Source of the DNA: Spirochaetia bacterium
Lineage (GTDB): Bacteria > Spirochaetota > Spirochaetia > UBA9216
Assembly: GCA_963675665.1 (NCBI GenBank)
Contig: OY776510.1
Location: 1,664,001 to 1,728,000 of the forward strand
Reading direction: 5' to 3'
DNA length: 64,000 bases
Translations under genes and position numbers: made by a program
The notes under the pieces: generated by a model
What the model was told of the DNA's origin: nothing
What the model saw: only the letters and a program-made list of their open reading frames with translations
The model's database searches: none
Shown: piece by piece, positions 29,047 to 57,192 of the stretch
Position numbering within the stretch: position 1 is the first letter of the stretch
Layout of the letters: each line of letters opens with the position of its first letter

Positions 29047-29149
29047 GAATCCAGATAACTAACAATAGAAGCACACACAATCAACACATTTGCCGTGTAG
29101 ATTGAATTATCATATTATTTCAGACTTGCTTCTGCAAGTCAAATTTCCT

Positions 29150-29194: not shown

Positions 29195-29247
29195 TATCTG
29201 CATGAGGCCTGTATTGATTGTCAATTTCGACCGATAATAAAAACACT

Positions 29248-37339: not shown

Positions 37340-37630
37340 TCAATCATTTTCTATAAAAAAAGCTCTTGATTTTGTGCTCTTTTCTCTTAAGTCTTTTATT
37401 AGTTCATACTCTTTTGAATAAAAACAATCCTTGGCATCTTTCATTGAATTAAAAGAAATAATTATTACACGATCAGGTTTTTCTCCGGAATATTTTGTAA
37501 TTTTTTCACTTCTCACAAGATATTCACCATTATATGATTGAATTATCTTCACAACTTCTTTTAAATATAAGTTGTACAGATGTTTGTTATTAATTTTTTC
37601 AATCAAAGCTACAAATACTACCTTATTCAT
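37340..37630 (-). CDS. DUF1330 domain protein
   Basis: Y..Y...V..II..Y.G.YLVR, RVIIISF, and FYSKEY...K..R motifs. Confidence 0.8.
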   Translation of the reverse strand: MNKVVFVALIEKINNKHLYNLYLKEVVKIIQSYNGEYLVRSEKITKYSGEKPDRVIIISFNSMKDAKDCFYSKEYELIKDLREKSTKSRAFFIEND

Positions 37631-37744: not shown

Positions 37745-38040
37745 AAGGATTACCATCAGTGCAAGCAAAAAACCGATATAATATAATACTTCGATATACT
37801 CACATATATCTACTCGCTTTTTTTTGAAGTTACCATAAAACGACTCAATCCTTGCCATGTTGTGTCAATTACCTCGGCGAGTCATGTTTCGTTCGGGATC
37901 GTGGTTCCTGCAAAATCTAACCCTGTCGTCACTAACAAATTATGAACTCTGGTCTTATATCCTTCGGTCTTTTGGTCCAGAAGGCTTTCTGTTGTTACCG
38001 ACGGGTTGCCATGGCTAAATGTACGGCTCATATTGCCAAG
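37745..38040 (-). mobile_element. Degenerate IS3-family transposase relic
   Basis: Minus strand reads ...KAFWTKRP...SDDR...MTRRGN*HNMARIESFYGNFK...ICEYIEV, matching the IS3 pattern MSRRGNCxDNAxxESFF...YIE, with stops and deletions. Ends are approximate. Confidence 0.65.
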
Positions 38041-38156
38041 AAAGTTTTTAAGTCTTTTCCGTTCCGGGAAAGTTTTTATTTTCCCGGAAACGCAGGCCCG
38101 GAATCTATCCGCATCCGATAATTTCGATTTTATTTTCTTCTCATGTTACTATCCCC

Positions 38157-40040
38157 TTATAGTCCGATACGGTGCTTTTCTGTCTGTACATCCGCACACC
38201 AGTTCCCGACATTCCACTTCCCGAATGCACCAAGGCCCCCAAGCTCGTTGTTTCCGTAATATACAGGTACATGCACGATAGAAAGGCCGTCGATGGCGCT
38301 GGCTTTCCTTAGGGCTTCTTCCAAGGATTCAGGTGTTCCGCCGGCAGTGAATCCTGTCACTCCTTCGACGGCTGAAGCAAGTCCGGCGTAATTAACAGCT
38401 ACTTTGTCGTCCGTCCTGTATTCGTTATCGTATTGCGCTTCCTGCAAAGATGAAATAGCTGACATCCGCCGGTTGTCGAAGAGGATGATCATGGCTTTTA
38501 GTCCGTGCTCAACAGCGTCGATGAGGATTTGGGGATTCATCATGAAGCTGCCGTCCCCGGTGAAGGCTATAGGATAATCCGGTTCCGGAACGAGCGCTGA
38601 GGCGAGCAGGGCCGATACTGCGAAGCCCATGAAGGAGGCTCCCGTATCTGTGAAAGTCCGACCGGAAATCTCATCGCAGCAGATCTGAAAGCCGTTAGCC
38701 TGGACGTCTCCCGCGTCGAAATACTTGACAGCTCCAATCGAATCAGCGAAGTCGACCGCAATTTTAATTGCTGCAGGCTGTGTCAAAAGAATTTTGCCGA
38801 ATTTCTCATCGGGGAGAGCCGGAGTTTCAAAGCGGAGTTTTTTAAATTCCTCCCATTCCCGACGTTTCTCTGCGCAGGTTTCCTGCCATGTGTTGAGCGT
38901 TCCTGAATCCTTCCCCGTCCAGGCACCAAGCACGCTGTTTAATCTGGTAAGAATTCTCTCCGCGTCTCCAGGCAATGCCAGAGTTCTGTTGTACTGGGCA
39001 AGATCATCGAGATTCGTATTAATGGAGATGATATTATTCGCTTTGGGAAAACCGGTACCCGAGCTGTCCCACTGGCATACACCCCGTGCTCCGATCGTAA
39101 CGAGGAGATCGCATTCCGTCATGGCAAAGTTTCCGCAGATTGATCCTTTAGAGCCTCCGACGGCCATATTCCTTCGGTCCGAGGAGGGAAGAAGTCCCGG
39201 AATTACCGGACCGTGAACATAAACCGCCCCTGTGAGATCGAGGAATCTCTTAAGCGTATCGGAACGTACGTTTCTGGCGCCTCCTCCGGTCTTTACAGTT
39301 ATTCGTTCGGCGTTACGAAGGAGCCTGACTGCGGGTTCAAAGGCTTTATCGTCAGCGCAGACTTGTGGAGGAATAGTCGAACGCACGGGAAACTCCAGAA
39401 GATTAACCGCACGTGATATCAGGGGCTGGATATTCATCGGCATTAGCATGTAGAAGGGTTTCTCCCCCGCCGGATTATGGACGGTCGAGGTCCCCCGTTT
39501 CAAGGCCGTGAAGATCGCTTCCGGCGTATGGAGGGTGTAGGCAGGGCCCATGGTTCCGGAAAGGCGAAGGAAAAGTTCCTGTTCCCGCCGGGGTATCTGT
39601 TGCATGTTAGGCCCTTCTCCATGGGTTGTCTCGTCACCGAAGAGGTAATAAATCCCCAGTCCGTTGGAAAGGGGAGTTAGGGAGCCTGCAAGAGCGTGAA
39701 GGGCTCCCGGGCCGATGGAAGTGAAAACTGCCGGGGTGATCCCGTAGTGCCACCGTAGGGCCGCTGCGGCATGGGAAGCCTCAACCTCGTGACGCACTTG
39801 AACGGTCTTCAAGACTCCGGCTTCTTCGTAAACACGCATCACTTCACCCAGATCGGTAGAGCCGTGCCCGAAGATGCCGATGAATGTGGTAACCCCCTGA
39901 TTTGCGAGGCCCAGGATGATTGCCTCGCTGGTGTTGAGATCCTGAAACTGATCGAGTTCACCTGCTGCGACAGCTTTTCTCAAAGTACCGTAGGTTTTCA
40001 GGGCTTCCGCCCGTTTTCTTCTGTCTGTATTCATGGTCAT
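38157..40040 (-). CDS. ThDP-dependent enzyme, IolD-like (cyclic 1,2-diketone acylhydrolase family)
   Basis: GIFGHG, RHE, TSIGPG and the ThDP motif GDGSFMM...FDN...I..LQ. Confidence 0.8.
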   Translation of the reverse strand: MTMNTDRRKRAEALKTYGTLRKAVAAGELDQFQDLNTSEAIILGLANQGVTTFIGIFGHGSTDLGEVMRVYEEAGVLKTVQVRHEVEASHAAAALRWHYGITPAVFTSIGPGALHALAGSLTPLSNGLGIYYLFGDETTHGEGPNMQQIPRREQELFLRLSGTMGPAYTLHTPEAIFTALKRGTSTVHNPAGEKPFYMLMPMNIQPLISRAVNLLEFPVRSTIPPQVCADDKAFEPAVRLLRNAERITVKTGGGARNVRSDTLKRFLDLTGAVYVHGPVIPGLLPSSDRRNMAVGGSKGSICGNFAMTECDLLVTIGARGVCQWDSSGTGFPKANNIISINTNLDDLAQYNRTLALPGDAERILTRLNSVLGAWTGKDSGTLNTWQETCAEKRREWEEFKKLRFETPALPDEKFGKILLTQPAAIKIAVDFADSIGAVKYFDAGDVQANGFQICCDEISGRTFTDTGASFMGFAVSALLASALVPEPDYPIAFTGDGSFMMNPQILIDAVEHGLKAMIILFDNRRMSAISSLQEAQYDNEYRTDDKVAVNYAGLASAVEGVTGFTAGGTPESLEEALRKASAIDGLSIVHVPVYYGNNELGGLGAFGKWNVGNWCADVQTEKHRIGL

Positions 40041-40675
40041 TCTCCCCGGCCCAATCTGAATTCAAGGGCCTGCCGCAGTTCGTTGTCCTCGATAGTGTCC
40101 GGTTGAAGCAGTTCTGCGATACCGGGATAGGTAAGGCATCTGTTCAGTATATCTTCCGGCATCTTCATGACTATTTCGGGAAACGGCCTGTGACCAAGGA
40201 TTGAAAGGTCCGACAGGTTTTTCCGTGATTGCGCCTGGGATTCCTTCCTGTGCGACGGATAACCACAGCCCCGTTCGACACTGAAGAAACGGTCGAATAT
40301 GAAGTTCAGATTGACATCTGCTGCCCAGCCGTAGCCCTGGTTGAGTGCCAGTGCCACAGCATTGCCCCCGTTGATCTGGGCGAACAGCCATGCGTCCAGG
40401 CTGTCGAGGATGTGTCCGCAGAAAACACCGGGATACTGCATCGCCGAATTTAGGTATCCCTGACCGGTTCCACAGCCTCCCACAACGAAATCAACCCGTC
40501 CGGCATTAAGAAGCAGAGCGGTAAGAAAACCGGTATGGATATAGGTCAGTTCCGGCAGAGCTCCATTTTTCGTCATTCCCGCGTTGACAATCTTATGCCC
40601 GCGACCTTCCAGCGCTGTAACTACTGCAGCGTTTTTGTCTGCGGAACTCGTTTCGTTAATGACAGCTATTGTCAT
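40037..40675 (-). CDS. RpiB/LacAB family isomerase, DhuI-like long form
   Basis: IAVINE.S..KN, LTYI..G, GCGTGQG, DAWLFAQINGGN, GYGWAA..NL and GCGYP motifs. Confidence 0.85.
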   Translation of the reverse strand: MTIAVINETSSADKNAAVVTALEGRGHKIVNAGMTKNGALPELTYIHTGFLTALLLNAGRVDFVVGGCGTGQGYLNSAMQYPGVFCGHILDSLDAWLFAQINGGNAVALALNQGYGWAADVNLNFIFDRFFSVERGCGYPSHRKESQAQSRKNLSDLSILGHRPFPEIVMKMPEDILNRCLTYPGIAELLQPDTIEDNELRQALEFRLGRGE

Positions 40676-40687
40676 GGCAATTCCTCC

Positions 40688-41632
40688 TTATTTTCGACCC
40701 AGGATGCGTTTTACAGCTTCCTCAATATTTTCTGTATTGATACCCAGGCTGCTGAAGATTTCCTCGTTTTCTCCCGATTCCATGAAGATATCCGGGAATC
40801 CGAGGCGTGTGAGGAAGCAGGGCTGGTGTTCCGAGAGGACCTCCGCAACCGCTCCCCCAAGACCTCCGATTATGCTGTGGTTCTCCACAGTAATAATGTG
40901 TCCGCAGTCTCTTGCCGCCCGGATGATAATATCCTTGTCCAGGGGCTTGATAGTCCCCATGTGAATGACACGGACCCTGATACCCCTCCGCTCCAGGTTT
41001 TCTGCTGCCGTCAGCGCTTTCGGAGTCATCATGCCTGTAGATACGACGGCAATATCGTTTCCGGTATGGATTTCAAGTCCCTTTCCCAGTTCCATCTTGT
41101 AGGACTCCGGAAAGATTACAGGGACGGGGCACCGGACGGTTCTGATATACACGGGACCCGGTGTTTTAAGGGCGAGCATGACGGCACTGCGGGTTTCCAC
41201 CGGGTCTGCAGGAATCAGAACCTTCATATTGGGCATGGCCCTCATAACGGCAATATCCTCCACGGAAGAATGTGTCGCTCCGGCTTTTCCCGTTGGCAAT
41301 CCGCCATAAGCACCGTTGAGTTTAACGTTTAGCGCCGGATAGGCAACGGAAACCCGTATCTGGTCGGCGGCCCGTTTTGCAAGGAATACGGCAAAGGTTG
41401 ACACGAATGGCGTCCAGCCATTGGTAGAAATACCCGCCGCCATTCCCACCATATTGGCTTCAGCTATACCGCACTGGTAAAACCTGTCCGGATAAGCTTC
41501 CTTGAAAAAGTGTGTCTGGGTAGAAGCATTGACATCCGCATCGAATACCAGGAGGTTTTTGAATTCCTCTGCCGCTTCCACCAGGGCTTTCCCAAAGGCC
41601 ACCCGAGAAGCGATCATATCACCTATTTTCAT
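40688..41632 (-). CDS. Transketolase, C-terminal subunit (split)
   Basis: DAD...ST, GIAEANM..AAG, RAADQIR, GATHSSVED and ENHSIIGGLG motifs; GAGGAGG RBS before ATG 41632. Confidence 0.92.
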   Translation of the reverse strand: MKIGDMIASRVAFGKALVEAAEEFKNLLVFDADVNASTQTHFFKEAYPDRFYQCGIAEANMVGMAAGISTNGWTPFVSTFAVFLAKRAADQIRVSVAYPALNVKLNGAYGGLPTGKAGATHSSVEDIAVMRAMPNMKVLIPADPVETRSAVMLALKTPGPVYIRTVRCPVPVIFPESYKMELGKGLEIHTGNDIAVVSTGMMTPKALTAAENLERRGIRVRVIHMGTIKPLDKDIIIRAARDCGHIITVENHSIIGGLGGAVAEVLSEHQPCFLTRLGFPDIFMESGENEEIFSSLGINTENIEEAVKRILGRK

Positions 41633-42467
41633 TACATGCCTCCTCAATGATGTTCAGTTCGGTCATGGCAGCTTTGTATTCGGTGTCGTTCGGGGATTTG
41701 CCGTGCCAGATATATTTCCCTTCCATGAAAGACACTCCTTTGCCTTTAACTGTATGAGCCAGAACCATGACTGGCCCCGATTTGGCGATTTCACAGGCTT
41801 TTTCCAGAGTCGGCACCAGTTCAGCCATATTATGACCATCACATTCCAGCACGCTCCAGCCGAAAGCCCTCCACTTGTCCCCTATCGGCTCGAGATCGGA
41901 GGTGCCCTTTACCGTATCAGCCAGCTGGACTTTATTGTAATCCGTTATGGCTATAAGTTGTTGTATACGGTGTGAACCTGCATATAGAGCCGCTTCCCAT
42001 ACCTGGCCTTCCTGCATCTCGCCATCGCCGAGAAGAACAAAAACCCTGTATTCCTCTTTATTACGTGCTGCACTCAGTGCCATTCCTATCCCCAGGGAGA
42101 TTCCCTGTCCAAGGGAGCCTGTGGAAATATCAACCCCGGGAGTCTTATGCATATCCGGGTGGCCCTGTAATCTGCTTCCGTACCGGTCGAAGGTGTTTAG
42201 TTCCTCCTCTGGGAAAAACCCCCGCAGAGCCAGGACCGAATAATAACCGGGAGTGGCATGACCTTTGGAAAGAATGAACCGGTCACGTCCTTGTTTATGG
42301 GGAATTCGAGGATCAATCCGCATTATGTGAAAATACAAGGCTGTCAGAATATCCGCTTCTGACAGGGAGCCGCCAGTGTGCCCGCAGCCTGCTGTATGTG
42401 TGGTTTGCAGGATGGATCGACGAACCTGGATGGCTGTTTTTTCAAGTTTGTGAATAGTATTAATCAA
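41619..42467 (-). CDS. Transketolase, N-terminal subunit (split)
   Basis: GHTGGSLS, RDRFILSKGH, LQGHP, STGSLGQG, GDGE.QEG..WEA and HTVKGKG motifs. Confidence 0.93.
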   Translation of the reverse strand: MINTIHKLEKTAIQVRRSILQTTHTAGCGHTGGSLSEADILTALYFHIMRIDPRIPHKQGRDRFILSKGHATPGYYSVLALRGFFPEEELNTFDRYGSRLQGHPDMHKTPGVDISTGSLGQGISLGIGMALSAARNKEEYRVFVLLGDGEMQEGQVWEAALYAGSHRIQQLIAITDYNKVQLADTVKGTSDLEPIGDKWRAFGWSVLECDGHNMAELVPTLEKACEIAKSGPVMVLAHTVKGKGVSFMEGKYIWHGKSPNDTEYKAAMTELNIIEEACNENR

Positions 42468-42489
42468 AATAGTAACTCCTTATATGATC

Positions 42490-42502
42490 AATATGCGTAT
42501 TA
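42490..42502. promoter_or_regulatory. Candidate IclR operator half-site
   Basis: AATATGCGTATTA; its exact reverse complement lies at 43932-43944. Confidence 0.5.
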
Positions 42503-42586
42503 TGAAGTATTAATGCGGATAATGCAATACAAAATTAAAAAAAATAGGATATTGTGCCCAATAAAATAATTCTTTATAATGTTGAC

Positions 42587-43363
42587 ATGAGTGCTGAAGA
42601 GACATCTATCATACAATCAGTCGACAGAGCAATGATTCTTCTTAAAGCCGTTGCTTCGAATCCTCAGAAAGGGAAAACACTAAACGAGTTAACCGCTTTT
42701 CTTGGAATTGACAGGAGTTCAATTTTCAGATCCTTGACAACCCTTATTAAGCACAATCTTGTAAGACAAGATAAAGCTACTAAATGTTATAAACTGGGAT
42801 ACGGCGTATTTCAGCTTGCTGGTGCTCTGCGTGTACAGGACAAACTCACTGAAGTGGCCAGACCTTTCCTCGTCAAACTGGTGGAAAAAATCGGTGAAAA
42901 TGCTCACCTTGCAGTTCGGTCGGGTAATTTATCAGTTTTCATAGATCGCGAACAGGGAAATAAAACATTGACCGCGAATACCGACCTGGGAGGTACTGAA
43001 GAATTATATTGTACTGCAGTTGGCAGGTGTCTTATATGTAACATGAATATGGAACAATTACACGAACTTTACTCACCTGGTGAATTTAGGGCTTATACTG
43101 AAAATACAATTATCAGTTATGAACAACTGTATGAAGAACTCTGTAATGTAAGAGAAACGGGATTTGCAGTGGATAATGAAGAATATGAATATAATATTAT
43201 TTGCTTGGCTGGTCCCATATATAATTTTGAAAATAAAATAGAAGCAGCTATTGGTGTTTCCGGACCGAAGTTGAGAATTAAAAATAGAATTGATGAAATT
43301 GGTTCTTATATAAAGGAATTAAGCGAGGAGTTGAGTGCTCTTCGAGGATATCAAGGAATATAA
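42587..43363 (+). CDS. IclR family transcriptional regulator (probably leaderless)
   Basis: IQSVDRA, HTH with SSIFR.L.TL, YCTAVGR and GFAVDNEE motifs; TATAAT at 42575 just before the ATG. Confidence 0.92.
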   Translation: MSAEETSIIQSVDRAMILLKAVASNPQKGKTLNELTAFLGIDRSSIFRSLTTLIKHNLVRQDKATKCYKLGYGVFQLAGALRVQDKLTEVARPFLVKLVEKIGENAHLAVRSGNLSVFIDREQGNKTLTANTDLGGTEELYCTAVGRCLICNMNMEQLHELYSPGEFRAYTENTIISYEQLYEELCNVRETGFAVDNEEYEYNIICLAGPIYNFENKIEAAIGVSGPKLRIKNRIDEIGSYIKELSEELSALRGYQGI

Positions 43364-43924
43364 TATATTGAATCCAATTACAGCTGAAGAAAGTTGTTGA
43401 CGGAGTAATTAATGAAAACTTTATACTGTGCCTGATTAAACAGCTATCATCAAATGATGTTAGTGCAGAGCACCCCTCCCTCATAATTGTCCTTTCTGTG
43501 TATTTCGATGGTATTACACTGGAGCGGATCAGTCAGGAATATCATTGTTCTGACTGTAATAGTCGTTTCTGATGCCAATTGATGCCGGGCTGAGACATAT
43601 AAAAGTACCGCTGATACTTCCACCACATTTATGCTGTAGAAATCCTGCTTCACTTAACCCTTTGTGGATTGTTTTGGTTGAATGGGGCATGGTCTTTTCT
43701 CGTTTGATCCATAACTGCCGTAAGGCGGTTCCTTCGATAGCTTTTAATTTGGTTTGCTCATTCTCCCTGATCTTGTAGATTTAGGGCTGCAGAGCGTCTC
43801 TGTCCTTTTTCTGTTAAAAAATATAAATATAACTTGCATAATACGAAAAGCCATGTCATAATAAGCAACAGATGGGTTTCTTATAATCATTGAATAAGGT
43901 TAAAATGAGAAATTGTATATTTGC

Positions 43925-43944
43925 TGTGTATTAATACGCATATT
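43925..43944. promoter_or_regulatory. Candidate IclR operator upstream of the ABC operon
   Basis: Near-perfect palindrome TGTGTATTAATACGCA at 43925-43940. Confidence 0.55.
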
Positions 43945-44026
43945 TTTTAAAGGAGGTGAGATCTTTTAGGGTAAGTATTAGTATTCTATTTTGATTAATT
44001 CTAAACTAATTTATTGGAGGATGTTA

Positions 44027-45448
44027 ATGAAATCTACAATTCGGAAAAATTTTTTTATGATTATTGTATTATTATTTATTTCTGTATCAATATGGGCTGG
44101 AGGAAAGCAAGAGGGAAAAGCTGTAATAGAAGACGACATTGACCAGAATGTTGAGTACATAACAGGTACATACCCGCCTCTTATAGCAGACAAGCCTTTT
44201 GCCGGAACCGTAATCACTTTTCCCGCCTTAAAGGGATGGGCGAGTTTTCAGCCGGCAATGGATCTGACTCCTGAATTTGAGGAAATGACAGGGATAACGA
44301 TACACTATGTTGAATTGCCTGGTTCAGAAATAATATCAAAACAGCTCTTGGAATTGTCACAAGGTATGAAAACTTTCGACTTTGTGCATTCCTGGGCCAG
44401 TGCATATGGCAAGTTTTTTGATTATGTTGTCCCAATTGATAACCGAATAATCCGGGATTGGGGTAGTGTGGATACATATTTGGATTCCTTCTTTGAACTT
44501 CATCAAAATACCAAGGGAGAGGATGGGAAGTTTTATTGGACTCCTTTCCATGCAAACACACAAATCTGTACGTATCAAGTAAGATTATTCGAAGATCCCA
44601 AAGAGCAAAAAGCTTTCAAGGACTTATATGGTTATGAGCTTGCTCCTCCGGAAACTTTTGAACAATTCATTGATATTGCATCATTTTTTAATCGTCCGGA
44701 GGAAGGGCTTTACGGATTCGCTGCGAATTGGGTAGGCGGAGATGGAAATTGCTCATTTCTTCATTATTATTTAGCCTCAGGATTCGATTTGCTTGATAAC
44801 AACTATATGCCGACAATGCGAAGTCCGGAGGGTAGGGCTGCTGCTTTAAAAATTGCCCGATGGATGCAGGACTCTATATATAAAGATGGTTATACCGCAC
44901 CAGACTCTATCTCTTTTTCTACCGGACAAATTTTTGATTATTTTTATAGTGGTTCCTGTGCTATAGCGTTTGGATGGCTATCAGATTATTGGTCGTTTAT
45001 TCAGGATAATAAATCCACCAGTAGTATAGGGGATATTGGAGCTTTTGCTTTACCTTCACCGACGGGTGCGAAATCAGGGGGATATGCATCATGGCATGTT
45101 CTTGGACTGAATAAATATTCCGAAAAAAAGGATGCCTGCTGGGAATTCATAAAGTGGTTATTAAATGAAAAGCAGCAACTGGCAATGGCGGGAGGACAGC
45201 TGCCTCCAATAAAAGAAATTGCTTATAAGACGTCTGTAGAGCCCGGTGGTATTGACCCAAAAGCACTATATGATGCATTTTATTACGCTCATCTTCCTTA
45301 TCAAATTCCTGAGTTGTCATTGATCACCACACGAGCAGAAGAATTATTGACTTCTCTTTTAGCAAACATGATGACACCCGAAGCATTTGTCGATGAGTTT
45401 GTAATAGAGATTGAAGAAAAACTGATAGAGTATGGATATATAAAATGA
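44027..45448 (+). CDS. Carbohydrate ABC transporter substrate-binding protein (CUT1)
   Basis: GGAGG RBS; AGGKQE after the leader; FEEMTGI, F...YGYELAPPET, and AC(W)EFIKWL motifs. Confidence 0.88.
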   Translation: MKSTIRKNFFMIIVLLFISVSIWAGGKQEGKAVIEDDIDQNVEYITGTYPPLIADKPFAGTVITFPALKGWASFQPAMDLTPEFEEMTGITIHYVELPGSEIISKQLLELSQGMKTFDFVHSWASAYGKFFDYVVPIDNRIIRDWGSVDTYLDSFFELHQNTKGEDGKFYWTPFHANTQICTYQVRLFEDPKEQKAFKDLYGYELAPPETFEQFIDIASFFNRPEEGLYGFAANWVGGDGNCSFLHYYLASGFDLLDNNYMPTMRSPEGRAAALKIARWMQDSIYKDGYTAPDSISFSTGQIFDYFYSGSCAIAFGWLSDYWSFIQDNKSTSSIGDIGAFALPSPTGAKSGGYASWHVLGLNKYSEKKDACWEFIKWLLNEKQQLAMAGGQLPPIKEIAYKTSVEPGGIDPKALYDAFYYAHLPYQIPELSLITTRAEELLTSLLANMMTPEAFVDEFVIEIEEKLIEYGYIK

Positions 45449-46341
45449 GTTCCTTTATCAATAAGAAATTCAGTTTTTGGGTAGGGCTATTATTAGCCCT
45501 ACCATTTATTTACTTAGGATTTTTCTATTTTATGCCAATAATACGACTTGTGATTTTAAGCTTATTAAGATATGAACCGGCTTATGGTGTAAAGAAGTTT
45601 ATTGGAATAAAAAATTATTTGGATATATTTACGGATCTGAATAACATCAAAGTTATTTTTAGAACATTCCTGTATACCGGAATTTGTGTGTTTTTCTCCT
45701 TTTCCTTCGGATTGCTGTTTGCTCAGTATACAATTACATTAAACGATACATTCTCTGATAAATTGAGTACAACGTTTAGGCAAATTATTATTTTGCCTAT
45801 GATTCTTATACCCGCAGCAGCAGGCGTATTATGGGCTTTTGCATATACAGAACATTACGGATGGGTAAATCACATTCTATCGGGATTAGGTATGAAGACT
45901 TTTCCCTGGCTGGTCTCGAATAAGGCTTTTTATTTGGTAATGCTGGCTGATATTTGGGGATGGACGCCTTTCATGTATTTAATTTTATTAGCAGGTTTAC
46001 AATCAATGAACAGAGAGCCAATTGAAGCGGCTAAAGTTGACGGGGCTTCTCCAATGCAAACTTTCTTTCTGGTTATTTTGCCGATACTTCGTCCAATTAT
46101 TAGTATCGCCTTGGTAATTAAAATATTAGATACTTACAGAGCCTTTGACTACCTATGGATTATGACCAAGGGAGGGCCCGGTGATCTATCAACAACTTTA
46201 AATATTATAACTTATAAAACTGCATTCCTGAATCTGAAGTTCGGTAAGGCCAGTACATATGGCGTTATCACTCTGCTTTTTCCTCTTGTTTTTATAAACA
46301 TTTTTTTATTATTACAGCGAAATAAAAAAGGAACAGATTAG
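45445..46341 (+). CDS. Carbohydrate ABC permease (MalF-like)
   Basis: F.G..NY, W..TPF.Y..LLAGLQ, EAAKVDGA and T.GGPG motifs. Confidence 0.92.
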   Translation: MSSFINKKFSFWVGLLLALPFIYLGFFYFMPIIRLVILSLLRYEPAYGVKKFIGIKNYLDIFTDLNNIKVIFRTFLYTGICVFFSFSFGLLFAQYTITLNDTFSDKLSTTFRQIIILPMILIPAAAGVLWAFAYTEHYGWVNHILSGLGMKTFPWLVSNKAFYLVMLADIWGWTPFMYLILLAGLQSMNREPIEAAKVDGASPMQTFFLVILPILRPIISIALVIKILDTYRAFDYLWIMTKGGPGDLSTTLNIITYKTAFLNLKFGKASTYGVITLLFPLVFINIFLLLQRNKKGTD

Positions 46342-47187
46342 ATGAATAAGAAAGGATTCAAGAAAATATTATTATTGATACCATTTTTAATTATTGTAAT
46401 ATATACAATTTTCCCTTTTCTATGGTTTTTTATCGCTTCATTATCAAAGCCCGGGACTATTCCTAAAACATTATCACTACCGGACAGGCTAAGTTTCGAT
46501 GCATATTTTGCAGTGTTATCAAAAAGGTTTCAAATTGAAAACGGTTCAAACATTTGTATAACTTCGAATATTCTGAATTCGATTATTGTAGCGGCGCTAA
46601 CAGTTATTCTGTGCCTTTTGATTTCTATTGGAGCTGCTTATGTATTTTCCAGATATAATAGAAGATATATTAAATTCGGATTCAACTCTCTTCTTGTAAT
46701 AAGAATGACACCAAGTATTTCATTAACTATACCAATATTTTTATTCTTTGCAAAATTAAATATTGTTGATAAATATATTGGCCTTGTTCTAATACATACT
46801 CTTCTCAATATGCCGCTTGCAATTTGGATGATAAAAGGTTTTATTGATGCAATTCCCATCGAACTTGAAGAACAAGCGTATATAGACGGGTCTTCATTTA
46901 TGAATATATTAATTAAAATAATTATCCCGTTAGCCGCTCCGGGAATTGCGGTTTCCGCATGTTTCATCTTTCTTGGAAGTTTTAATGAATATTTATTCTC
47001 GATTGTATTATCAAGAGGTTCTATTGATACACTTCCTTTAGCGATTGCATCTTTTCAGGCGGATCATAAGGTCTTCTATAATGAGATGGCCGCGGCTACT
47101 TTTATTTCCATGATTCCTTTGACATTGTTCTTTTATTTAATGGGCAAGAATATAGTTAAAGGTATCAGCATGGGAGCAGTAAAATAA
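46342..47187 (+). CDS. Carbohydrate ABC permease (MalG-like)
   Basis: NSIIVA, IPIELEEQAYIDG, PLAAPG, TLP and GAVK motifs. Confidence 0.92.
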   Translation: MNKKGFKKILLLIPFLIIVIYTIFPFLWFFIASLSKPGTIPKTLSLPDRLSFDAYFAVLSKRFQIENGSNICITSNILNSIIVAALTVILCLLISIGAAYVFSRYNRRYIKFGFNSLLVIRMTPSISLTIPIFLFFAKLNIVDKYIGLVLIHTLLNMPLAIWMIKGFIDAIPIELEEQAYIDGSSFMNILIKIIIPLAAPGIAVSACFIFLGSFNEYLFSIVLSRGSIDTLPLAIASFQADHKVFYNEMAAATFISMIPLTLFFYLMGKNIVKGISMGAVK

Positions 47188-47224
47188 CTTTATATTCGAA
47201 AATAATTATTTTGGAGGAATAAAT

Positions 47225-48289
47225 ATGAATACGAAGGTGAAGGTCGGAATAGTAGGCCTTGGAAGGATATTTGATTTAAATTGTAAAGGATATTTAGATG
47301 CTGAAAACGCAGAGGTTGTTGCTCTATGCGAAAATAATAAAGAGTCATTAGAAAAACGAGGACTAATTTTCCCTTCGGCAAGAAAATATGAGTCTTTTGA
47401 AGATTTTCTGCAGGAAGATTTAGATATTGTTGAGATATTAACCCCTCATATAGTCCATAAAGATATGGTTATAAAAAGCCTGAAGTCCGGGAAAAATGTT
47501 AGTGTACAGAAACCCATGGCAATGAATGTGAAAGAAGCAGAACTGATGGTAGCGACAGCAAAAGAGGAAAATAAAATATTAAAAGTATTTGAAAATTTCA
47601 TCTTTTATCCCCCACTGGTCAAGGCAAAAGCACTTCTGGATGATGGGTATATTGGGAAACCGATTCATTTCAGAATTCAATTCATTTCCGGATATAGCCA
47701 ATATGCCTGGAATGTACCGGTTCAAACATCTAAATGGAGGACTGAATTATTTAAACAAAAGAAGGCCGGGCCGTTAGTCTTTGATGACGGTCATCATTTA
47801 TTAGCTGTGGCATTATGGCTTTTCGGCGATCCAAATGAAGTATTTTGCACTATAGATTCAACTGAAGAAAAAAGTGGGAAAGTGTATGATGCTCCAGCTA
47901 CTATTGTATGGAAGCATAAAAATCCAAAGGTACATGGTGTTTGTACATTTAGCCGTTCCGAGAAATTTCTGATGAACAGTAAATATTATGCCTGTAATGA
48001 AAAATTTGAAATTATTGGCGAGAAAGGAATTATTATTGTTAACAGGGCAAGTGGGAAGTTTATTAATGAACCGGTTATAAGAATATATAAAGATGGGAAA
48101 ATTGAAGACTTCCATGATATTGAAGATGACTGGGGAAAGAGTTTTTATTATTCAACGAGGAATTTTTTAGATTTTTTCTCCGGTAAGACTAATAAATATG
48201 AATTAACAGGAGAACAAGGTCTGGAGGTTATGAAATTTCTTGATATGGTTCAAGAATCTTCAATTACAAAGAAAGCAGTAGTACAATAG
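47225..48289 (+). CDS. Gfo/Idh/MocA family oxidoreductase
   Basis: GIVGLGRI, ILTPH..H, VQKP, G.IG and GPLVFDDGHH motifs. Confidence 0.9.
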   Translation: MNTKVKVGIVGLGRIFDLNCKGYLDAENAEVVALCENNKESLEKRGLIFPSARKYESFEDFLQEDLDIVEILTPHIVHKDMVIKSLKSGKNVSVQKPMAMNVKEAELMVATAKEENKILKVFENFIFYPPLVKAKALLDDGYIGKPIHFRIQFISGYSQYAWNVPVQTSKWRTELFKQKKAGPLVFDDGHHLLAVALWLFGDPNEVFCTIDSTEEKSGKVYDAPATIVWKHKNPKVHGVCTFSRSEKFLMNSKYYACNEKFEIIGEKGIIIVNRASGKFINEPVIRIYKDGKIEDFHDIEDDWGKSFYYSTRNFLDFFSGKTNKYELTGEQGLEVMKFLDMVQESSITKKAVVQ

Positions 48290-49071: not shown

Positions 49072-49581
49072 ATTTATGCTGTGTACGTCGTCAAATAATT
49101 CATACCAATCATATCAATTTTTTCAGCTATAGATTTTGCATCATTGAGAATTATGGGTGACGAGATAGTTGGACCTTTCAATTAAATAAAGAGTATCAAG
49201 TGAAGGATTTCAAAAACTGGGTATTTTTGGAAGAATTCTTTAACCGCTTTCCCGATGTGGATTGAAGTAAAACTGAAAAAAGTACAGTGTGTATTATGGA
49301 ATATACGAGAAATTGCTAAAGAGAATTAAAACTATCATAATATTAGTAGATAAGAAAGAAATTATGTTATTATTTCTATGTAAGGCAGAGTTACGGAAGT
49401 TATAATTATCCTTATTTAGTTTTTCTTTAGACTATTGAGATATTGTATTCACAAAAGCATATAAAATCAATACAAATCAAATTTTTTAGTTAAAAATTGC
49501 TTGACATAATGGAATGTGTGTATTTAGATTGTATTAATATAAATAATACTTAACAGGTATGGAATGTGTTGGGAGATTAAT

Positions 49582-51018
49582 GTGAGTAGTGTATTTTTAT
49601 CTATTGATTCAGGCACCAGTTCAATCAGAGTTTCCTTTTTCAGTGAAGAAATAGTTTTAATTGCATCTGAGTCTATCGAAAGATCTGTAAATAGAAAATT
49701 TTCAGCAGAACAAGAATGGGATTATACGAGGAAGTTGATAAGAAGGATTATAGAAAAGAATCCCGGCTATAAGATTAAGGCAATAGCTGTCTCTCAGTTC
49801 TTGTCGTGGGTAATGATTGATAAAGATGGTAACCCTTTATCAGATGTAATTATGTATACAGATCAGAATTTAAAAGAATACACAGAATATTTGTCAAAGA
49901 ATCCACTATTAGACTTTTATAAAAAGACTGGAAGAGATATATCTGCCGATATGCCTATATTTGAGTTGATAAGGATTAAAAATGAAAATAGGAGAATGTA
50001 TGATAAAATTTATAAAATGATTCCTGTTAAAGATTACATAAATTTTAAATTAACAGGAGAAATTTTTTCAGATTATACTTTTTCCTGTTATGGATCGGTT
50101 TTTAATATAATAACAAAGGATTATGATGATGAAATCCTGTTATCATTTAATATTGAAAAAGATAAATTCCCCGAATTAAGAAAGTGCAACAGTATTATAG
50201 GAATGGTAAATGGTAAAGTCGCAAGCGATATTGGCCTTGCTGAAGAAATACCGGTTGCAGCAGGTGGGCCTGACGGGAGCATCGGAATAATCGGAATCGG
50301 TAATACAAAAAAAACAAGTGCCGTAAGCATTATGGGCACAACAGATGTATTTTTTGCAAATAGTGATAGCTGTTTAATAAAAAAAATAGGAAAGGAACTT
50401 GTAAAGAATATTCACCCTCTTGAAGATAATTATCTTTTAGGTGGTCCTATGGGGTTTTCTGGAGGTACTATTAATTGGTTAATTAAATTTCTTAACGGCC
50501 AGTATTCTTTAGAAAATTTAAATGAAATAGCTGAGGATATTCCACTAGGTTCTGGAGGAGTAATGTTTATTCCAGGATTGACTGGTGAGAGGGCACCATT
50601 TTGGAATCCAAAAATTAAAGGAAGTATTATAGGGTTGCAGCCTTATCATAATGCCGGTCATATGTTTAGAGCTATTCTTGAAGCTAATTCGTTTACTACA
50701 TTAAAAATAATCGAAATAATTAGATGTCAGGGAGCAGATGTTAATAATATAATTACAGGTGGTGGTGGGAGCAGGAGCAATTTGTGGATGCAGATAAAAG
50801 CAGATATTACAGGAATTCCTGTTATGGTTTCGTCAGAAAAAGAGACCACTTCTAAAGGAAATGCTATTATAGCGAGTTTAGCTGTAAATAATAGATCAGT
50901 TATTCCGGAACCACAAATTCGACATGTTTTTTATCCGGATAAGGAAGTTCATGAAAAGTATCATGAGTCTTATAATTTATATTTGAAATTTATTAAATTA
51001 ATTAATGAAATTTATTGA
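49582..51018 (+). CDS. FGGY family carbohydrate kinase (xylulokinase-like)
   Basis: IDSGTSSIR, KDYINFKLTG, GGPD, MGTT, PGLTGERAP.W, RAILE and GGGSRS.LW.QIKADI motifs; GGGAG + GTG start. Confidence 0.9.
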   Translation: MSSVFLSIDSGTSSIRVSFFSEEIVLIASESIERSVNRKFSAEQEWDYTRKLIRRIIEKNPGYKIKAIAVSQFLSWVMIDKDGNPLSDVIMYTDQNLKEYTEYLSKNPLLDFYKKTGRDISADMPIFELIRIKNENRRMYDKIYKMIPVKDYINFKLTGEIFSDYTFSCYGSVFNIITKDYDDEILLSFNIEKDKFPELRKCNSIIGMVNGKVASDIGLAEEIPVAAGGPDGSIGIIGIGNTKKTSAVSIMGTTDVFFANSDSCLIKKIGKELVKNIHPLEDNYLLGGPMGFSGGTINWLIKFLNGQYSLENLNEIAEDIPLGSGGVMFIPGLTGERAPFWNPKIKGSIIGLQPYHNAGHMFRAILEANSFTTLKIIEIIRCQGADVNNIITGGGGSRSNLWMQIKADITGIPVMVSSEKETTSKGNAIIASLAVNNRSVIPEPQIRHVFYPDKEVHEKYHESYNLYLKFIKLINEIY

Positions 51019-51064: not shown

Positions 51065-51799
51065 TTGGTAGATAGAAAGAGAACAAATACAAATCCATTA
51101 TATCATACTATAAAGGAAGATATAAAAAAGCAGATTCATGAAGAGATTTATAGGCCTGGAGATTTCATCTCTACCGAAGGAGAACTTTGCCGACAATATG
51201 ATGTAAGTAGAGTTACTGTGAGACGTGCTATTGAAGAACTTATAGACGAAGGTGTATTGAATCGGGAATCTGGAAAAACGGCACACGTAGCAGAGAAATC
51301 TATTCCTAGAAGCTTGAATCAACTTGGTGGATTGCATGAAGAATTATCACGAGATGGTATCAAATGTTCATCGTTTATTCTAAATTCTGAAAAGATAAGG
51401 GCAGATTCAATTATGGCTGATAATCTAAAAATAAACGAAGGAGATTGTTTGCATCGGGTAGAACGTCTAAGATATGCTAATGGAACTCCTCTCTCTTATC
51501 AGATCTTATATTTAGTCGATAAATCCTGTCCAGATCTTGACGTTCAGAAATTAGCTACAAAATCTTTATTTGAGACATTGGAAAAAGAGTATAATCTTAA
51601 AATTGAATATGCGACACAGACTATCTCTGCTGCATTAGCAACTTATAAGCAAGCTGCTCTTCTAGAGCTTCCTGAACGAACATGTATGCTTTGCATAAAA
51701 CGTATTACATATCTAAAAGATGGAAATGCGATTGAATATTCTGAAAGTTTTTATGTAGCAAGTAAATATAATTTATCAATGACTTTGCAGCGGAATTAG
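51065..51799 (+). CDS. GntR/HutC family regulator (UTRA domain)
   Basis: PLY..IKE, EL...Y.VSRVTVRRAI, ERLRYANG.P and SLF..LE motifs. Confidence 0.92.
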   Translation: MVDRKRTNTNPLYHTIKEDIKKQIHEEIYRPGDFISTEGELCRQYDVSRVTVRRAIEELIDEGVLNRESGKTAHVAEKSIPRSLNQLGGLHEELSRDGIKCSSFILNSEKIRADSIMADNLKINEGDCLHRVERLRYANGTPLSYQILYLVDKSCPDLDVQKLATKSLFETLEKEYNLKIEYATQTISAALATYKQAALLELPERTCMLCIKRITYLKDGNAIEYSESFYVASKYNLSMTLQRN

Positions 51800-51828
51800 C
51801 AATACATGTAGCCATAATTATAACAATT

Positions 51829-51899
51829 ACAATACAAATGTAATAAAAAGAGTTGACAGGTAAGCAATCCTTATTGTATTGTTATTGTAACATAACAAT
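51829..51899 (+). promoter_or_regulatory. Promoter with ACAATACA/TGTATTGT boxes upstream of the ThDP gene
   Basis: TTGACA at 51853; ACAATACAAATGTAAT at 51829 and TTGTATTGT at about 51874. Confidence 0.5.
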
Positions 51900-51911
51900 G
51901 AGGGTATAATA

Positions 51912-53570
51912 ATGAGTGAACAGTATAAAGGGGGACAGTTAGTAGTTAAAGTCCTCGAAGAAAATAAAACAAAAGTAGTATTCGGTATTCCCGGAGGACA
52001 AACTTTAAGTGTAACGGATGCGATATATGATACAGATATCAGGTTTATAAATACACGACATGAAAATGGTTCAGCCTGTGCGGCAGATGGTTGGGGGCGC
52101 CTGACTGGAGAACCCGGAATATGCCTGGCAACAACCGGATGCGGAGCATCAAACCTGATAACCGGTTTAGGCGGAGCATACAGGGATTCTAGTCCGGTAA
52201 TTGCGTTGGTATTTCAAAATAAACTACCTGACGCAGGAAAAGGTGATGCGCAGGAGAGTAATCATGAAGCTTTATTCTCAAGTATATGTAAGCAGTACAT
52301 CCCGGTAAGATCTGCCGGCAGTGTGGTATGGGCAATGCGTGAAGCCTACAGGGTTGCAAAAACCGGCAGGCCCGGACCCGTTGTCGTTGATTTGTATAGA
52401 GATGTTGTTGAAGATCAGACAGCAGGATACGAGTATGTGGACCCAAAAAGTTACTGTATACAAAGCAGGGTTAAGCCAGATGACGAAGAAGTAAAATCAG
52501 CAGTTAAAGCAATAAAAGACAGTAGCAAAATCTGTGTTTGGTGCGGTAATGGCGTTAAACTTTCAGATGCATCGGAAGAAGTAATGAAACTGTCTAAAAT
52601 AACCAATGCGCCGGTAGTTACAACCTATAACGGGATTGCATGCATCCCCGGAGAATTTGAAAATCTGATAGGTCCGAGGAGCCGGCATGGTAGTGTCGTC
52701 ACCAAGGCCGCAATAGAGGATGCAGATTGTATAGTATTGGTAGGCTCGACACTGACGGCGATAAGCACAAACCGTTGGAGTATAAAAGCTAAGAATATAA
52801 TCCAGATAGATATAATCCCTGAGAACATAGGCAGACATTATCCTGTATCGGTAGGTGTGGTCGGAGATGCGAAGAAAGCATTAACCGCGATAACTGACGG
52901 TTTGGTAAGTGCCGGATTCATTGGTGAAGAAGCTTTCCTTCAGGAACTGAAAAGTAAAAAGTCAGAATGGGAAAAGAAAACAGTATCCGGGGCGATAGCG
53001 GATAAGACAGCGGAGCCGGTGGCGCCGATAGCTTTTGCGAAAGAATTTGAGAAGGTACTATCTGAGAACAGTGTTTTAGCGGTAGACGCGGGAAATCCCG
53101 GGGCATGGACGCATATAATAAAATTTCCGAAAGGAACTTCCTATATGAAGCCGGTAAATTTTGGGAACATGGGTTTTGCTCTTCCGGCTGCCTTGGGGGC
53201 AAAGGCTGCTGCACCGGAAAAAGAAGTAATAGCGTTGTTGGGTGACGGGTCGCTTGGAATGACTCTGACGGAACTGGAAACAGTGGCCCGGGAGAAACTA
53301 AATATCATAATACTTGTATTGAATGATGATGCGTATGGAAATATCAGGCAGGAAGAGCTTTTTAAGACCGGAAAGGAACGGTACATAGGAGTTGATTTCA
53401 CTCGGGTTGATTATGTGGATGTAGCAAAGGCGCTTGGATGTGATGGAGCTGTAGTACGAAAAGCAAGCGACTTATCTTCCGCATTTGCGCAAGCCCGTGC
53501 GTCGGAGAAGCCCTTTATGATTGAAGTAAAGTTCGATGGTAGCTATACTATTTGGCCTGAAGCTTTCTAG
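51912..53570 (+). CDS. ThDP-dependent enzyme (acetolactate synthase/2-hydroxyacyl-CoA lyase superfamily)
   Basis: VFGIPGG, RHE (catalytic Glu), GRPGPV, G.MGF.LPAALG and GDGS...N..YG motifs; TTGCG replaces the usual TSGPG. Confidence 0.88.
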   Translation: MSEQYKGGQLVVKVLEENKTKVVFGIPGGQTLSVTDAIYDTDIRFINTRHENGSACAADGWGRLTGEPGICLATTGCGASNLITGLGGAYRDSSPVIALVFQNKLPDAGKGDAQESNHEALFSSICKQYIPVRSAGSVVWAMREAYRVAKTGRPGPVVVDLYRDVVEDQTAGYEYVDPKSYCIQSRVKPDDEEVKSAVKAIKDSSKICVWCGNGVKLSDASEEVMKLSKITNAPVVTTYNGIACIPGEFENLIGPRSRHGSVVTKAAIEDADCIVLVGSTLTAISTNRWSIKAKNIIQIDIIPENIGRHYPVSVGVVGDAKKALTAITDGLVSAGFIGEEAFLQELKSKKSEWEKKTVSGAIADKTAEPVAPIAFAKEFEKVLSENSVLAVDAGNPGAWTHIIKFPKGTSYMKPVNFGNMGFALPAALGAKAAAPEKEVIALLGDGSLGMTLTELETVAREKLNIIILVLNDDAYGNIRQEELFKTGKERYIGVDFTRVDYVDVAKALGCDGAVVRKASDLSSAFAQARASEKPFMIEVKFDGSYTIWPEAF

Positions 53571-53748
53571 AGAAGAGTGTTTTGAAAGAACAAAATAGAA
53601 GAATAAAACTTGTAATCACATATGATGCTATCAGAACTATGGTGATGGTTAAGTGCTCTGCTAATATGTGGTTCCCTGAAATGAAGTGGCTTGATGCAAA
53701 ACTTATATTACAGTCGGCAATACTATAAAAAAATATTGGAGGATTTTT

Positions 53749-54654
53749 TTGGAAAGGAAATCAAAACAGACTACAGTTGAGGAAGCTGTTTCAATAATTG
53801 AGTCTGGTTCAAAATTGGCAATTGGCGGATCTCTTATACGTAAAGCTCCTATGGCACTTGTAAGAGAAGTTGTTAAACAAAAAAAACGAGATTTAACTTT
53901 GTATAGTTGGTCGGCTGGGATGGACTTTGATCTATTAATTGGTGCAGGTTGTGTAAAGGAAGCTTGGTCTTCATACTGCGGCTTGTTTCAATTCGGTATG
54001 GCTATGAATTTCCGGCGCGAAGTTGAGAGCGAGAAGGTGCGGTTTGTTGATCTGAGCGAAACATGCGCTAAAGATAAATTCAGGGCTGCCGCGTTTGGTA
54101 ACACATACTGTATTTCAAAAGTCCCGTTACATACAAGCCTTATGGAAAATGAAGAATTTCAGAATATTGTAACTTGTCCATTCACCGGCGAAGAATACGT
54201 AGCGATGGAAGCATACCATCCTGACGTAGCCATTCTGCATGCCCATAGAGCGGATAAATACGGAAATGTTCAACTTGACCCGATACGGATGATGGATAAT
54301 GAATGTGATATTATGATAGCAAAATCTGCGAAAAAGGTGATTGTTTCTGTTGAAGAAATAGTGGATGAGTCAATAATAATAGAGAATCCTACATGGACCG
54401 TACTTCCCAAGTTTTTTGTTGATCATGTAGTAGAGATACCTTTTGGTGCACATCCGAATTCATGCGATACATTATATGATTTTGATATGGAACACGGAAG
54501 ACTTTATCGTGATTACAGTGTTTCTGTAGATCAATTCCAAAAATATTTAGAGGAATATATTTTTTCATGTCTTAATCATTCTGATTATATAGAGAAATGC
54601 GGCGGTATAGATTCTTTTAGAAAATTGAGTAGATCAACGGTGGAGGATAATTGA
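53749..54654 (+). CDS. Family I CoA-transferase subunit A (GctA-like)
   Basis: IGG....R.PMA..RE, DLLIGAG, CPFTGE, PDVAILHA..AD..GN and P.GAHP motifs. Confidence 0.88.
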   Translation: MERKSKQTTVEEAVSIIESGSKLAIGGSLIRKAPMALVREVVKQKKRDLTLYSWSAGMDFDLLIGAGCVKEAWSSYCGLFQFGMAMNFRREVESEKVRFVDLSETCAKDKFRAAAFGNTYCISKVPLHTSLMENEEFQNIVTCPFTGEEYVAMEAYHPDVAILHAHRADKYGNVQLDPIRMMDNECDIMIAKSAKKVIVSVEEIVDESIIIENPTWTVLPKFFVDHVVEIPFGAHPNSCDTLYDFDMEHGRLYRDYSVSVDQFQKYLEEYIFSCLNHSDYIEKCGGIDSFRKLSRSTVEDN

Positions 54655-55475: not shown

Positions 55476-55485
55476 GGGGGAAAAA

Positions 55486-56688: not shown

Positions 56689-56704
56689 TTTTAAGGAGAA
56701 ATTT

Positions 56705-57190: not shown

Positions 57191-57192
57191 AG

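Follow-up and report, generated by a model that had tools for sequence, protein, structure and literature searches.

What does a thiamine diphosphate (ThDP)-dependent enzyme with a distant likeness to IolD, the hydrolase of inositol catabolism, accomplish in an operon that otherwise encodes an aldose-ketose isomerase and a transketolase divided between two polypeptides? The question is posed by a 64,000-nucleotide stretch of the genome of a Spirochaetia bacterium (GTDB lineage Spirochaetota; Spirochaetia; UBA9216; assembly GCA_963675665.1, contig OY776510.1, positions 1,664,001 to 1,728,000), here called the window, whose own numbering is used for its features. By the open reading frame (ORF) listing and family scans, the four genes lie on the minus strand in the order TktN, TktC, RpiB-like isomerase, ThDP enzyme. 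The ThDP protein belongs to a family of its own, its gene keeps similar company in distantly related bacteria, and, judged by sequence, the operon probably encodes an undescribed, kinase-free breakdown of a sugar-like compound. Searches of the literature, which did not extend to subscription journals or bioRxiv supplements, turned up no description of this gene combination.

The first gene, TktN (41619-42467), encodes the ThDP-binding half of transketolase (Pfam Transketolase_N, E 3.7e-48) and overlaps TktC (40688-41647), which encodes the C-terminal half with its pyrimidine-binding and C-terminal domains (Pfam Transket_pyr and Transketolase_C). After a gap of 12 nucleotides comes the gene for the 212-residue RpiB-fold aldose-ketose isomerase of the DhuI family (40037-40675; PRK09273, PF02502, NF006753), which overlaps by 4 nucleotides the last gene of the operon, that of the 627-residue ThDP enzyme (38157-40040; Pfam TPP_enzyme_N, M and C). 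Across 86 intergenic nucleotides, a divergent IclR-family regulator gene (42554-43363, plus strand; Pfam HTH_IclR and IclR_C) is followed on the same strand by an ATP-binding cassette (ABC) importer and a dehydrogenase. The importer comprises a 485-residue solute-binding protein of the SBP_bac_1 (CUT1) type (43991-45448) and two BPD_transp_1 permeases (45445-46341 and 46342-47187), with no ATPase gene within the block, and the dehydrogenase is a 354-residue, NAD-dependent member of the Gfo/Idh/MocA family (hereafter Gfo; 47225-48289), both by Pfam. This is the arrangement of tight operon, divergent iclR, importer and dehydrogenase that an earlier, sequence-only reading of the window had described, and IolE, IolB, IolC and IolJ, which it had reported missing from the window, were not found there. 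Operon, regulator, importer and dehydrogenase may belong to a single catabolic unit, which would act on an imported sugar-like compound; confidence in this proposition is about evenly balanced.

IolD (TIGR04377) is the best NCBIfam match of the ThDP protein, at 133.5 bits against a cut-off of 715. On the same model its family relatives score 147-160 bits and true IolD proteins 849-920 bits, and the ordinary AHAS paralogues of the same genome, at 235 bits, outscore it. Profile comparison with hhalign gave 308 for the new family against IolD, 252 for the family against AHAS, and 471 for IolD against AHAS. In a quick maximum-likelihood tree, 16 family members form one clade on a stem of 5.4 changes per column, and this clade is joined with IolD, against AHAS- and OXC-like paralogues, with an approximate likelihood-ratio (SH-aLRT) support of 99, a grouping in which long-branch effects are possible. 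Residues E85, G495-D496-G497 and D522-N523 do not vary among 14 family members; the cofactor glutamate and the GDG...DN motif align to IolD and AHAS, a feature common to the whole superfamily, and the motifs IFGHG, SIGPGA, QQ(L/I) and LFDN are common to the new family and IolD but not AHAS. By these comparisons the protein is not IolD but founds a separate, deep family, predicted to be active, of which IolD is the nearest characterised relative. The term "IolD-like", used in the sequence-only reading, holds in the sense of distant kinship and fails in any closer sense, given a score so far under the cut-off and below that of AHAS paralogues. Because the branch is very deep, IolD hydrolase chemistry cannot be carried over to the new family, and the IolD label attached to it by some automatic pipelines is probably wrong. 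The family is present in at least 265 species and has no characterised member; of 8000 candidate proteins scored against it, 4967 came in at E <= 0.001.

Among solved structures searched by sequence, the best matches of the protein include 2-hydroxyacyl-CoA lyases (E 2e-18), and the same lyases are among the top fold matches of its AlphaFold model (pLDDT 78.7). Taken together, the sequence and fold searches returned generic AHAS, 2-hydroxyacyl-CoA lyase and OXC matches that do not discriminate between the readings weighed below, and a search of a protein atlas returned generic ThDP clusters only; one solved match of 619 residues, PDB 8RPH, is the carboligase JanthE according to its database listing. 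The bacterium's own genome has no match at the curated cut-off for IolD, IolE, IolB, IolC or the methylmalonate-semialdehyde dehydrogenase (MMSDH) IolA, the best score on the MMSDH/IolA model TIGR01722 being 209.6 bits (cut-off 448.5); IolJ was not searched for. Canonical IolD is likewise absent from four of five other genomes that carry the ThDP family, the fifth, Actinomadura harenae, having both.

Conservation of the neighborhood was surveyed with one genome per species: a relative of the ThDP protein was present in 265 species, and 80 loci were fetched and read. Neighbors were counted by tblastn over all 80, because greedy ORF calling missed or split genes in high-GC loci and called the ThDP gene itself in 72 of them. 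The carriers are Spirochaetota, Clostridia (among them human-gut Lachnospiraceae and Anaerotruncus), Planctomycetota, Actinomycetota, Chloroflexota and others. Of the 80 loci, 50 have the isomerase gene no more than 10 kb from the ThDP gene, and in 37 the distance is at most 1.5 kb; at the wider limit TktN is found in 38 loci, every one of which has the isomerase, Gfo in 41 and IclR in 33, and at the narrower limit Gfo is found in 19. Isomerase, transketolase and Gfo occur together at 22 loci. When the count is confined to the 40 loci that extend 5 kb or more in both directions, the isomerase is present in 23, TktN in 18, Gfo in 24 and IclR in 22. The gene combination recurs across phyla and is non-random. 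Neither of the two outcomes that the sequence-only reading had held against its own scheme was found: by model scores and genome search the ThDP protein does not cluster with canonical IolD while other iol genes lie elsewhere, and the four-gene combination is conserved to the extent of these counts.

The divergent genes of the window have counterparts in this survey as well. The window Gfo is the best match in its own genome to the Gfo proteins of Spirochaete clusters (230-233 bits, 36-38% identity, the next match scoring about 100 bits), and this comparison makes its gene the orthologue of the one found after the ThDP gene in those clusters. The IclR protein is 47-51% identical to its counterparts encoded beside the same operon at Spirochaete loci, and the layout of divergent IclR, Gfo and ABC genes is repeated at one locus, L073.

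Base composition divides the locus in two. The four enzyme genes have a guanine-plus-cytosine (GC) content of 50-53% (GC3, at third codon positions, 50-57%) and the IclR, ABC and Gfo genes one of 32-39% (GC3 27-33%), in a genome of 43.3%; the stretch from 37800 to 48289 is thus a mosaic, with enzyme genes about 10 points above the genome and IclR, ABC and Gfo genes 4-11 below it, and the high-GC island (37800-42300) takes in the four enzyme genes only. The two halves of the putative regulon therefore differ in origin. Among ThDP homologues with a locus the closest, at 71% identity, comes from a Spirochaetales metagenome-assembled genome in the host's class, on a contig of 58% GC, and the ThDP gene was found in none of five same-genus, one of ten same-family and five of 60 relatives searched. 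Judged by the GC island and this patchy distribution, the operon was acquired horizontally, and recently; it would have been set beside, or have replaced, an older copy next to the block of regulator, importer and dehydrogenase.

The gap of about 15 points between the two halves also speaks for a rival account, in which the ThDP enzyme is a carboligase or resembles a 2-hydroxyacyl-CoA lyase, or in which the operon is not wired to the ABC and Gfo block and the pathway is a mosaic. The lyase matches in sequence and fold point in that direction, as do CoA-transferase, CoA-ligase and thiolase genes in four Lachnospiraceae loci. CoA-handling genes, however, are confined to few loci, the associations of isomerase, transketolase and Gfo span phyla, and the window IclR and Gfo are orthologous to cluster-linked genes elsewhere, so this account is judged improbable.

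The isomerase passes NF006753 (194.7 bits, cut-off 137), and against solved structures it matches 3c5y (E 2.7e-44) and the Streptococcus DhuI gbs1892 (4u8e, E 8.5e-43); the model score and the gbs1892 match bear out the DhuI-type isomerase of the sequence-only reading. Membership in NF006753 links the window isomerase to the DhuI/KduI step of unsaturated-uronate catabolism, but it is partnered by a transketolase and a ThDP enzyme rather than by DhuD/KduD, KdgK and KdgA, none of which was found in the window or the conserved neighborhood. PF02502 is its only domain; the C-terminal module PF12408 (DUF3666), which it lacks, is present in four of five scanned Lachnospiraceae isomerase paralogues (those of loci L132, L133, L134 and L135, not L131). 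The paralogue loci L132 and L135 contain KduI, AP_endonuc_2 and TRAP genes, to which L135 adds UxuA and a gene of the mannitol-dehydrogenase family. Since these paralogues lie amid uronate genes, the broader isomerase family would appear to act on uronate-type acids.

For an isomerase of this fold joined to a split transketolase, the closest known parallel by analogy, and one that the sequence-only reading did not name, is the SqwGHI module of the sulfo-transketolase (sulfo-TK) pathway. SqwG and SqwH form a split transketolase and SqwI is a PF02502 isomerase; the transketolase takes a C2 unit off sulfofructose, SqwI isomerises the C4 aldose, and a second transketolase round follows, while in an oxidative variant there are also a sulfoacetaldehyde dehydrogenase and, coupled to the phosphorylation of ADP, a sulfoacetyl-CoA ligase (PMC9594981, PMC11659671). 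The order TktN, TktC, PF02502 isomerase is the same as that described for SqwG-SqwH-SqwI (PMC11659671). The pathway proposed here would resemble sulfo-TK further in being kinase-free and in passing C2 units from an omega-anionic sugar onto glyceraldehyde-3-phosphate, and each has variants equipped with an aldehyde dehydrogenase of their own and a step that yields ATP. It differs in that the operon adds a ThDP enzyme of the AHAS/IolD superfamily, in the added Gfo dehydrogenase, in the transketolase pocket, and in an accompanying aldehyde dehydrogenase of the malonate-semialdehyde type. The Lachnospiraceae isomerase paralogues were considered as SqwI-like copies and rejected as such, because they sit in uronate clusters and not in transketolase clusters.

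Pocket residues of TktC set it apart from both the canonical and the sulfo-TK enzymes. For SqwH the published residues are R9, A36, D108 and R166, at positions that are R356, S383, H466 and R525 in canonical transketolases (PMC11659671). Those of the window TktC are R10, S37, Y109 and R167 (R/S/Y/R, not R/A/D/R), an equivalence resting on the published numbering and on motifs rather than on direct alignment to SqwH. The numbering is from Met6: the listed TktC ORF begins at a TTG and overlaps TktN by 29 nucleotides, the true start is probably the ATG at 41632 (Met6), and this start puts the pocket numbering within one of that published for SqwH. The tyrosine is found in all 16 TktC proteins of the window's subfamily; the same position is aspartate in four Clostridial cluster copies and histidine in second copies of Hungatella and Lacrimispora, and it is D, H, S or N in the other split transketolases of the own genome. 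By sequence, TktN and TktC represent a distinct, specialised transketolase subfamily; specialisation had been proposed by the sequence-only reading, and the pocket residues, with a tyrosine kept across the subfamily, agree with it. Retention of the arginine pair argues for a substrate with an anionic tail.

One rival reading is a sulfosugar pathway: a sulfo-TK variant in which the ThDP enzyme would act like Xsc on sulfoacetaldehyde to give acetyl phosphate and sulfite, or in which a CoA-acylating dehydrogenase would give sulfoacetyl-CoA. Beyond the shared gene order, a TauE/SafE-family exporter adjoins three Treponema-type loci, some loci include GPH-family transporters or sulfatase, FGE-sulfatase-like and radical-SAM/SPASM proteins, and a phosphotransacetylase follows the isomerase at locus L026. 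The ThDP protein nevertheless scores only 64-69 bits on Xsc models, on which ordinary AHAS paralogues reach about 350; the window TktC has serine and tyrosine where SqwH has alanine and aspartate; and the aldehyde dehydrogenases of relatives, discussed below, lie above the cut-off of the MMSDH model but reach only 207 bits on SafD. Pfam scans of the neighbors showed no sulfoquinovosidase or sulfoquinovose isomerase, with no specific search made, nor did those of the window show SqvD, a sulfoquinovosidase, or SqwF or an exporter, with no search by family. A sulfosugar pathway is accordingly regarded as highly improbable.

The own genome holds two further modules of isomerase and split transketolase, and these suggest that the pair is a reusable back end, fed in the window by the Gfo and ThDP steps. 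The first, L107 (C1:1051962-1059662), has no ThDP enzyme and encodes a PBP4 binding protein, an ABC ATPase, a permease, a short-chain dehydrogenase/reductase (SDR), a metallo-beta-lactamase-fold hydrolase, an RpiB-like protein 57% identical to the isomerase of locus L007, TktN and TktC; the pair of SDR and hydrolase occupies the place of the window's Gfo and ThDP enzyme. The second, L108 (C1:4900290-4912806), encodes LacI, a PfkB kinase, a class II aldolase, TktC, TktN, two permeases, a KduI/IolB-family isomerase (89 bits on the IolB model, below cut-off), a solute-binding protein, a URO-D-like methyltransferase-type protein and a zinc-dependent alcohol dehydrogenase (Zn-ADH). URO-D-like genes also adjoin the ThDP gene at loci L053, L064 and L084.

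What enters and leaves this back end may be read from the clusters of relatives, which fall into several types. Spirochaete clusters combine the ThDP enzyme, Gfo, the isomerase and a split or fused transketolase with a CUT1 or RBP-like ABC importer and an IclR or LacI regulator. The Clostridial type consists of IclR, isomerase, ThDP enzyme, Zn-ADH, a molybdoenzyme of the xanthine dehydrogenase (XDH) family with its FAD subunit, and a DASS anion symporter; of the 12 loci with the molybdoenzyme, five continue with TktN and TktC. In a few Lachnospiraceae loci CoA-transferase, SDR, thiolase and CoA-ligase genes replace the transketolase. Planctomycete and Actinomycete clusters have neither isomerase nor transketolase and pair the ThDP enzyme with an aldehyde dehydrogenase resembling succinate-semialdehyde dehydrogenase (SSADH), with an IlvD-family dehydratase, or with both.

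The aldehyde dehydrogenases differ accordingly. Those of transketolase-type clusters pass the MMSDH/IolA model TIGR01722 in all six full-length cases (L013, L018, L029, L036, L063 and L085; L023 not scanned and L020 incomplete), with 490-586 bits against the cut-off of 448.5. Those of IlvD-type clusters are SSADH-like and fall below the cut-off in four of four, and the cluster IlvD proteins pass NF004784. Acyl-CoA end products are hinted at by extra genes, namely those for a phosphotransacetylase-cupin protein at L026 and an ADP-forming acyl-CoA synthetase at L078.

From the families and associations observed, we infer a substrate and a series of chemical steps as follows. A sugar-like compound would be imported and oxidised by the Gfo enzyme with NAD, after which the ThDP enzyme would cleave a C-C bond to leave an aldehyde that bears a 2,3-diol at its head and an acid group at its tail. 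The DhuI-type RpiB-fold enzyme would then convert this aldose to a ketose, from which the split transketolase would pass a C2 ketol to an acceptor such as glyceraldehyde-3-phosphate, yielding xylulose-5-phosphate and a short acid-aldehyde. Such a route would require no kinase or aldolase, and would be the carboxylate counterpart of the sulfo-TK pathway of SqwG, SqwH and SqwI.

The identity of the cleavage product may be narrowed by the two kinds of downstream module. Isomerase and transketolase need an OHC-CHOH-CHOH-R substrate, and the aldehyde dehydrogenase and IlvD need the same head, which points to a shared 2,3-diol aldehyde; aldehyde dehydrogenase and IlvD would take it to a 2,3-dihydroxy acid and on to a 2-keto-3-deoxy acid. 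Were R to be CH2-COO-, the transketolase route would yield xylulose-5-phosphate and malonate semialdehyde, which the IolA-type enzyme of relatives would convert to acetyl-CoA, and the aldehyde dehydrogenase and IlvD route would lead through 2,3-dihydroxyglutarate to 2-oxoglutarate. Malonate semialdehyde as a product would explain the IolA-type enzyme in relatives, and from a C5 deoxy acid-aldehyde both modules would reach central metabolism without a further enzyme. The product named by this argument, 3,4-dihydroxy-5-oxopentanoate, is put forward tentatively, as possible but on balance doubtful. Its simplest source would be decarboxylation and oxidation of a 2-keto-3-deoxy acid of the 5-keto-4-deoxyuronate type, the substrate class of DhuI, and the own genome contains GH88/GH105-family genes whose products could make 5-keto-4-deoxyuronate.

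A different entry was envisaged in the sequence-only reading, namely that Gfo oxidises a cyclitol (such as an inositol or deoxy-inositol), that the IolD-like enzyme turns the ring into an open-chain C6 uronate, for instance 5-deoxyglucuronate, that the DhuI-type enzyme stands in for IolB, and that transketolase replaces IolC and IolJ; in one variant the ThDP enzyme would also perform the IolE dehydration, by phosphoketolase-like chemistry. The canonical myo-inositol pathway runs through IolG, IolE, IolD, IolB, IolC, IolJ and IolA, as in Bacillus subtilis. The clusters resemble it in having a Gfo-family dehydrogenase, an IolD-related ThDP enzyme, a later aldose-ketose isomerase and, in relatives, an IolA-type dehydrogenase, but differ in that the ThDP enzyme is of another family, the isomerase has the RpiB rather than the KduI/IolB cupin fold, and a transketolase takes the place of IolE and IolC, for which there is no match, and of IolJ, which was not searched for genome-wide. 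In gut bacteria, canonical IolGEDBCJ genes are reported from Anaerostipes (PMC8355322), and a term search of a review on gut inositol (PMC12482443) finds no mention of IolD, transketolase or thiamine.

Much of the ThDP evidence given above, from the top NCBIfam and profile matches to the grouping in the tree and the four motifs held in common with IolD, favors a cyclitol. So does the Gfo of the clusters, whose best NCBIfam match is IolG and whose best-named solved relatives are inositol dehydrogenases; the Clostridial Zn-ADH matches the IolM model with 200 bits, an IolA-type enzyme lies beside the cluster as in iol operons, and among single loci L034 has two AP_endonuc_2 proteins and a PBP4-type importer and L027 an inositol monophosphatase nearby. 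Yet every iol-model score is far under its cut-off, including those of Gfo on the IolG model TIGR04380 (73.2 bits in the window and 112.9 bits in the L026 cluster, cut-off 355), and a very long branch leads to the new family. From a C6 5-deoxyuronate the transketolase would yield a C4 aldehyde instead of malonate semialdehyde, and the aldehyde dehydrogenase and IlvD module would require an additional aldolase. An IolE-type dehydratase is absent from 78 of the 80 loci, Clostridial loci have DASS anion importers, and the PBP4 proteins are closer to ribose-binding proteins (E 1e-56) than to the sugar-binding protein 4irx (E 2e-36), presumably an inositol binder. A cyclitol substrate is accordingly considered a serious rival, if on balance an unlikely one. 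The sequence-only reading stands as to the architecture of the locus and its non-canonical nature, whereas neither its cyclitol substrate nor its hydrolase chemistry is proven or favored by the accessory modules; its C6 uronate intermediate fits poorly, since the MMSDH and the aldehyde dehydrogenase and IlvD sets of relatives would each need a further enzyme. The decarboxylative route from 5-keto-4-deoxyuronate would fit the downstream modules better.

Several observations weigh against the kinase-free decarboxylative reading in its turn. The nearest characterised relative of the ThDP enzyme, IolD, is a hydrolase and not a decarboxylase, and the solved inositol dehydrogenases nearest to the cluster Gfo are 5ya8 and 3ezy (the latter at E 6.7e-31), which we take to be Thermotoga TM0414. 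Spirochaete binding proteins resemble binders of neutral sugars (ribose-, AcbH- and maltose-type); the nearest solved relatives of the window protein are maltose/trehalose-binding proteins, a weak match at E 3.5e-17. Of the 40 loci with flanks of 5 kb or more, 17 have neither isomerase nor transketolase, and the 80 loci show no recurrent unsaturated-uronate hydrolase or lyase. The own genome is without an MMSDH-type enzyme over the cut-off to take the final aldehyde. The enzyme genes, at 52% GC, and the IclR, ABC and Gfo genes, at 32-39%, have different histories, and the C5 argument presumes that the clusters are complete.

The 627-residue protein may represent a new class of ThDP reaction, and the operon a new central route, in one of two versions, although the claim is a speculative one and more doubtful than not. 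In the first, an inosose made by Gfo would be converted to a deoxy-uronate through phosphoketolase-like cleavage, dehydration and hydrolysis, merging the IolE and IolD steps; in the second, the ThDP enzyme would decarboxylate acids of the 5-keto-4-deoxyuronate type. In both, the product would enter a kinase-free carboxy-transketolase pathway, which in relatives would end in malonate semialdehyde and acetyl-CoA, or in 2-oxoglutarate. If true, this would be a second natural case of sulfo-TK logic, serving carboxylated sugars, as well as a new ThDP reaction, and anaerobes would be using an abundant plant- or host-derived compound, a cyclitol or a product of unsaturated uronates, without spending ATP on a kinase. 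It is important to emphasize that the two interchangeable downstream modules offer a testable prediction of a shared intermediate.

The remaining features of the window touch these questions less directly. An FGGY kinase gene (49564-51018) was tried as a member of the cluster and rejected, because it lies 1.27 kb beyond the Gfo gene and because only two Actinomadura loci have an FGGY gene (22% identical), about 10 kb from the ThDP gene. Rfam gave no match over the whole window, promoter-like sites were at chance level (35 observed, 35.8 expected), and of the 17 terminator-like sites (10.3 expected) none stood out at the operon ends. Among sequencing runs, no RNA run was listed as containing the locus. 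Directly downstream of the operon, in an AT-rich gap, lies a gene for a small DUF1330 protein (96 residues, 25% GC; 37340-37630, minus strand). Farther off, at 26953-30726, genes of a two-component system flank three successive ORFs of 363, 273 and 502 codons that have no Pfam match at E <= 1e-5.

Beyond the kinase gene, the interval 51065-59543 encodes a GntR regulator, a 552-residue AHAS-like ThDP enzyme, two CoA_trans subunits, a family III CoA-transferase and a TRAP transporter (DctQ, DctM and DctP), a layout that suggests an organic-acid pathway by way of a CoA thioester and a ThDP lyase or decarboxylase. It is followed by an IS66-family transposase gene (59805-61358) and a short PBP4-type ORF (62294-63043), and a third ThDP enzyme of the window begins at 63036 and runs past its end, its open frame amounting to 809 residues in locus L004.

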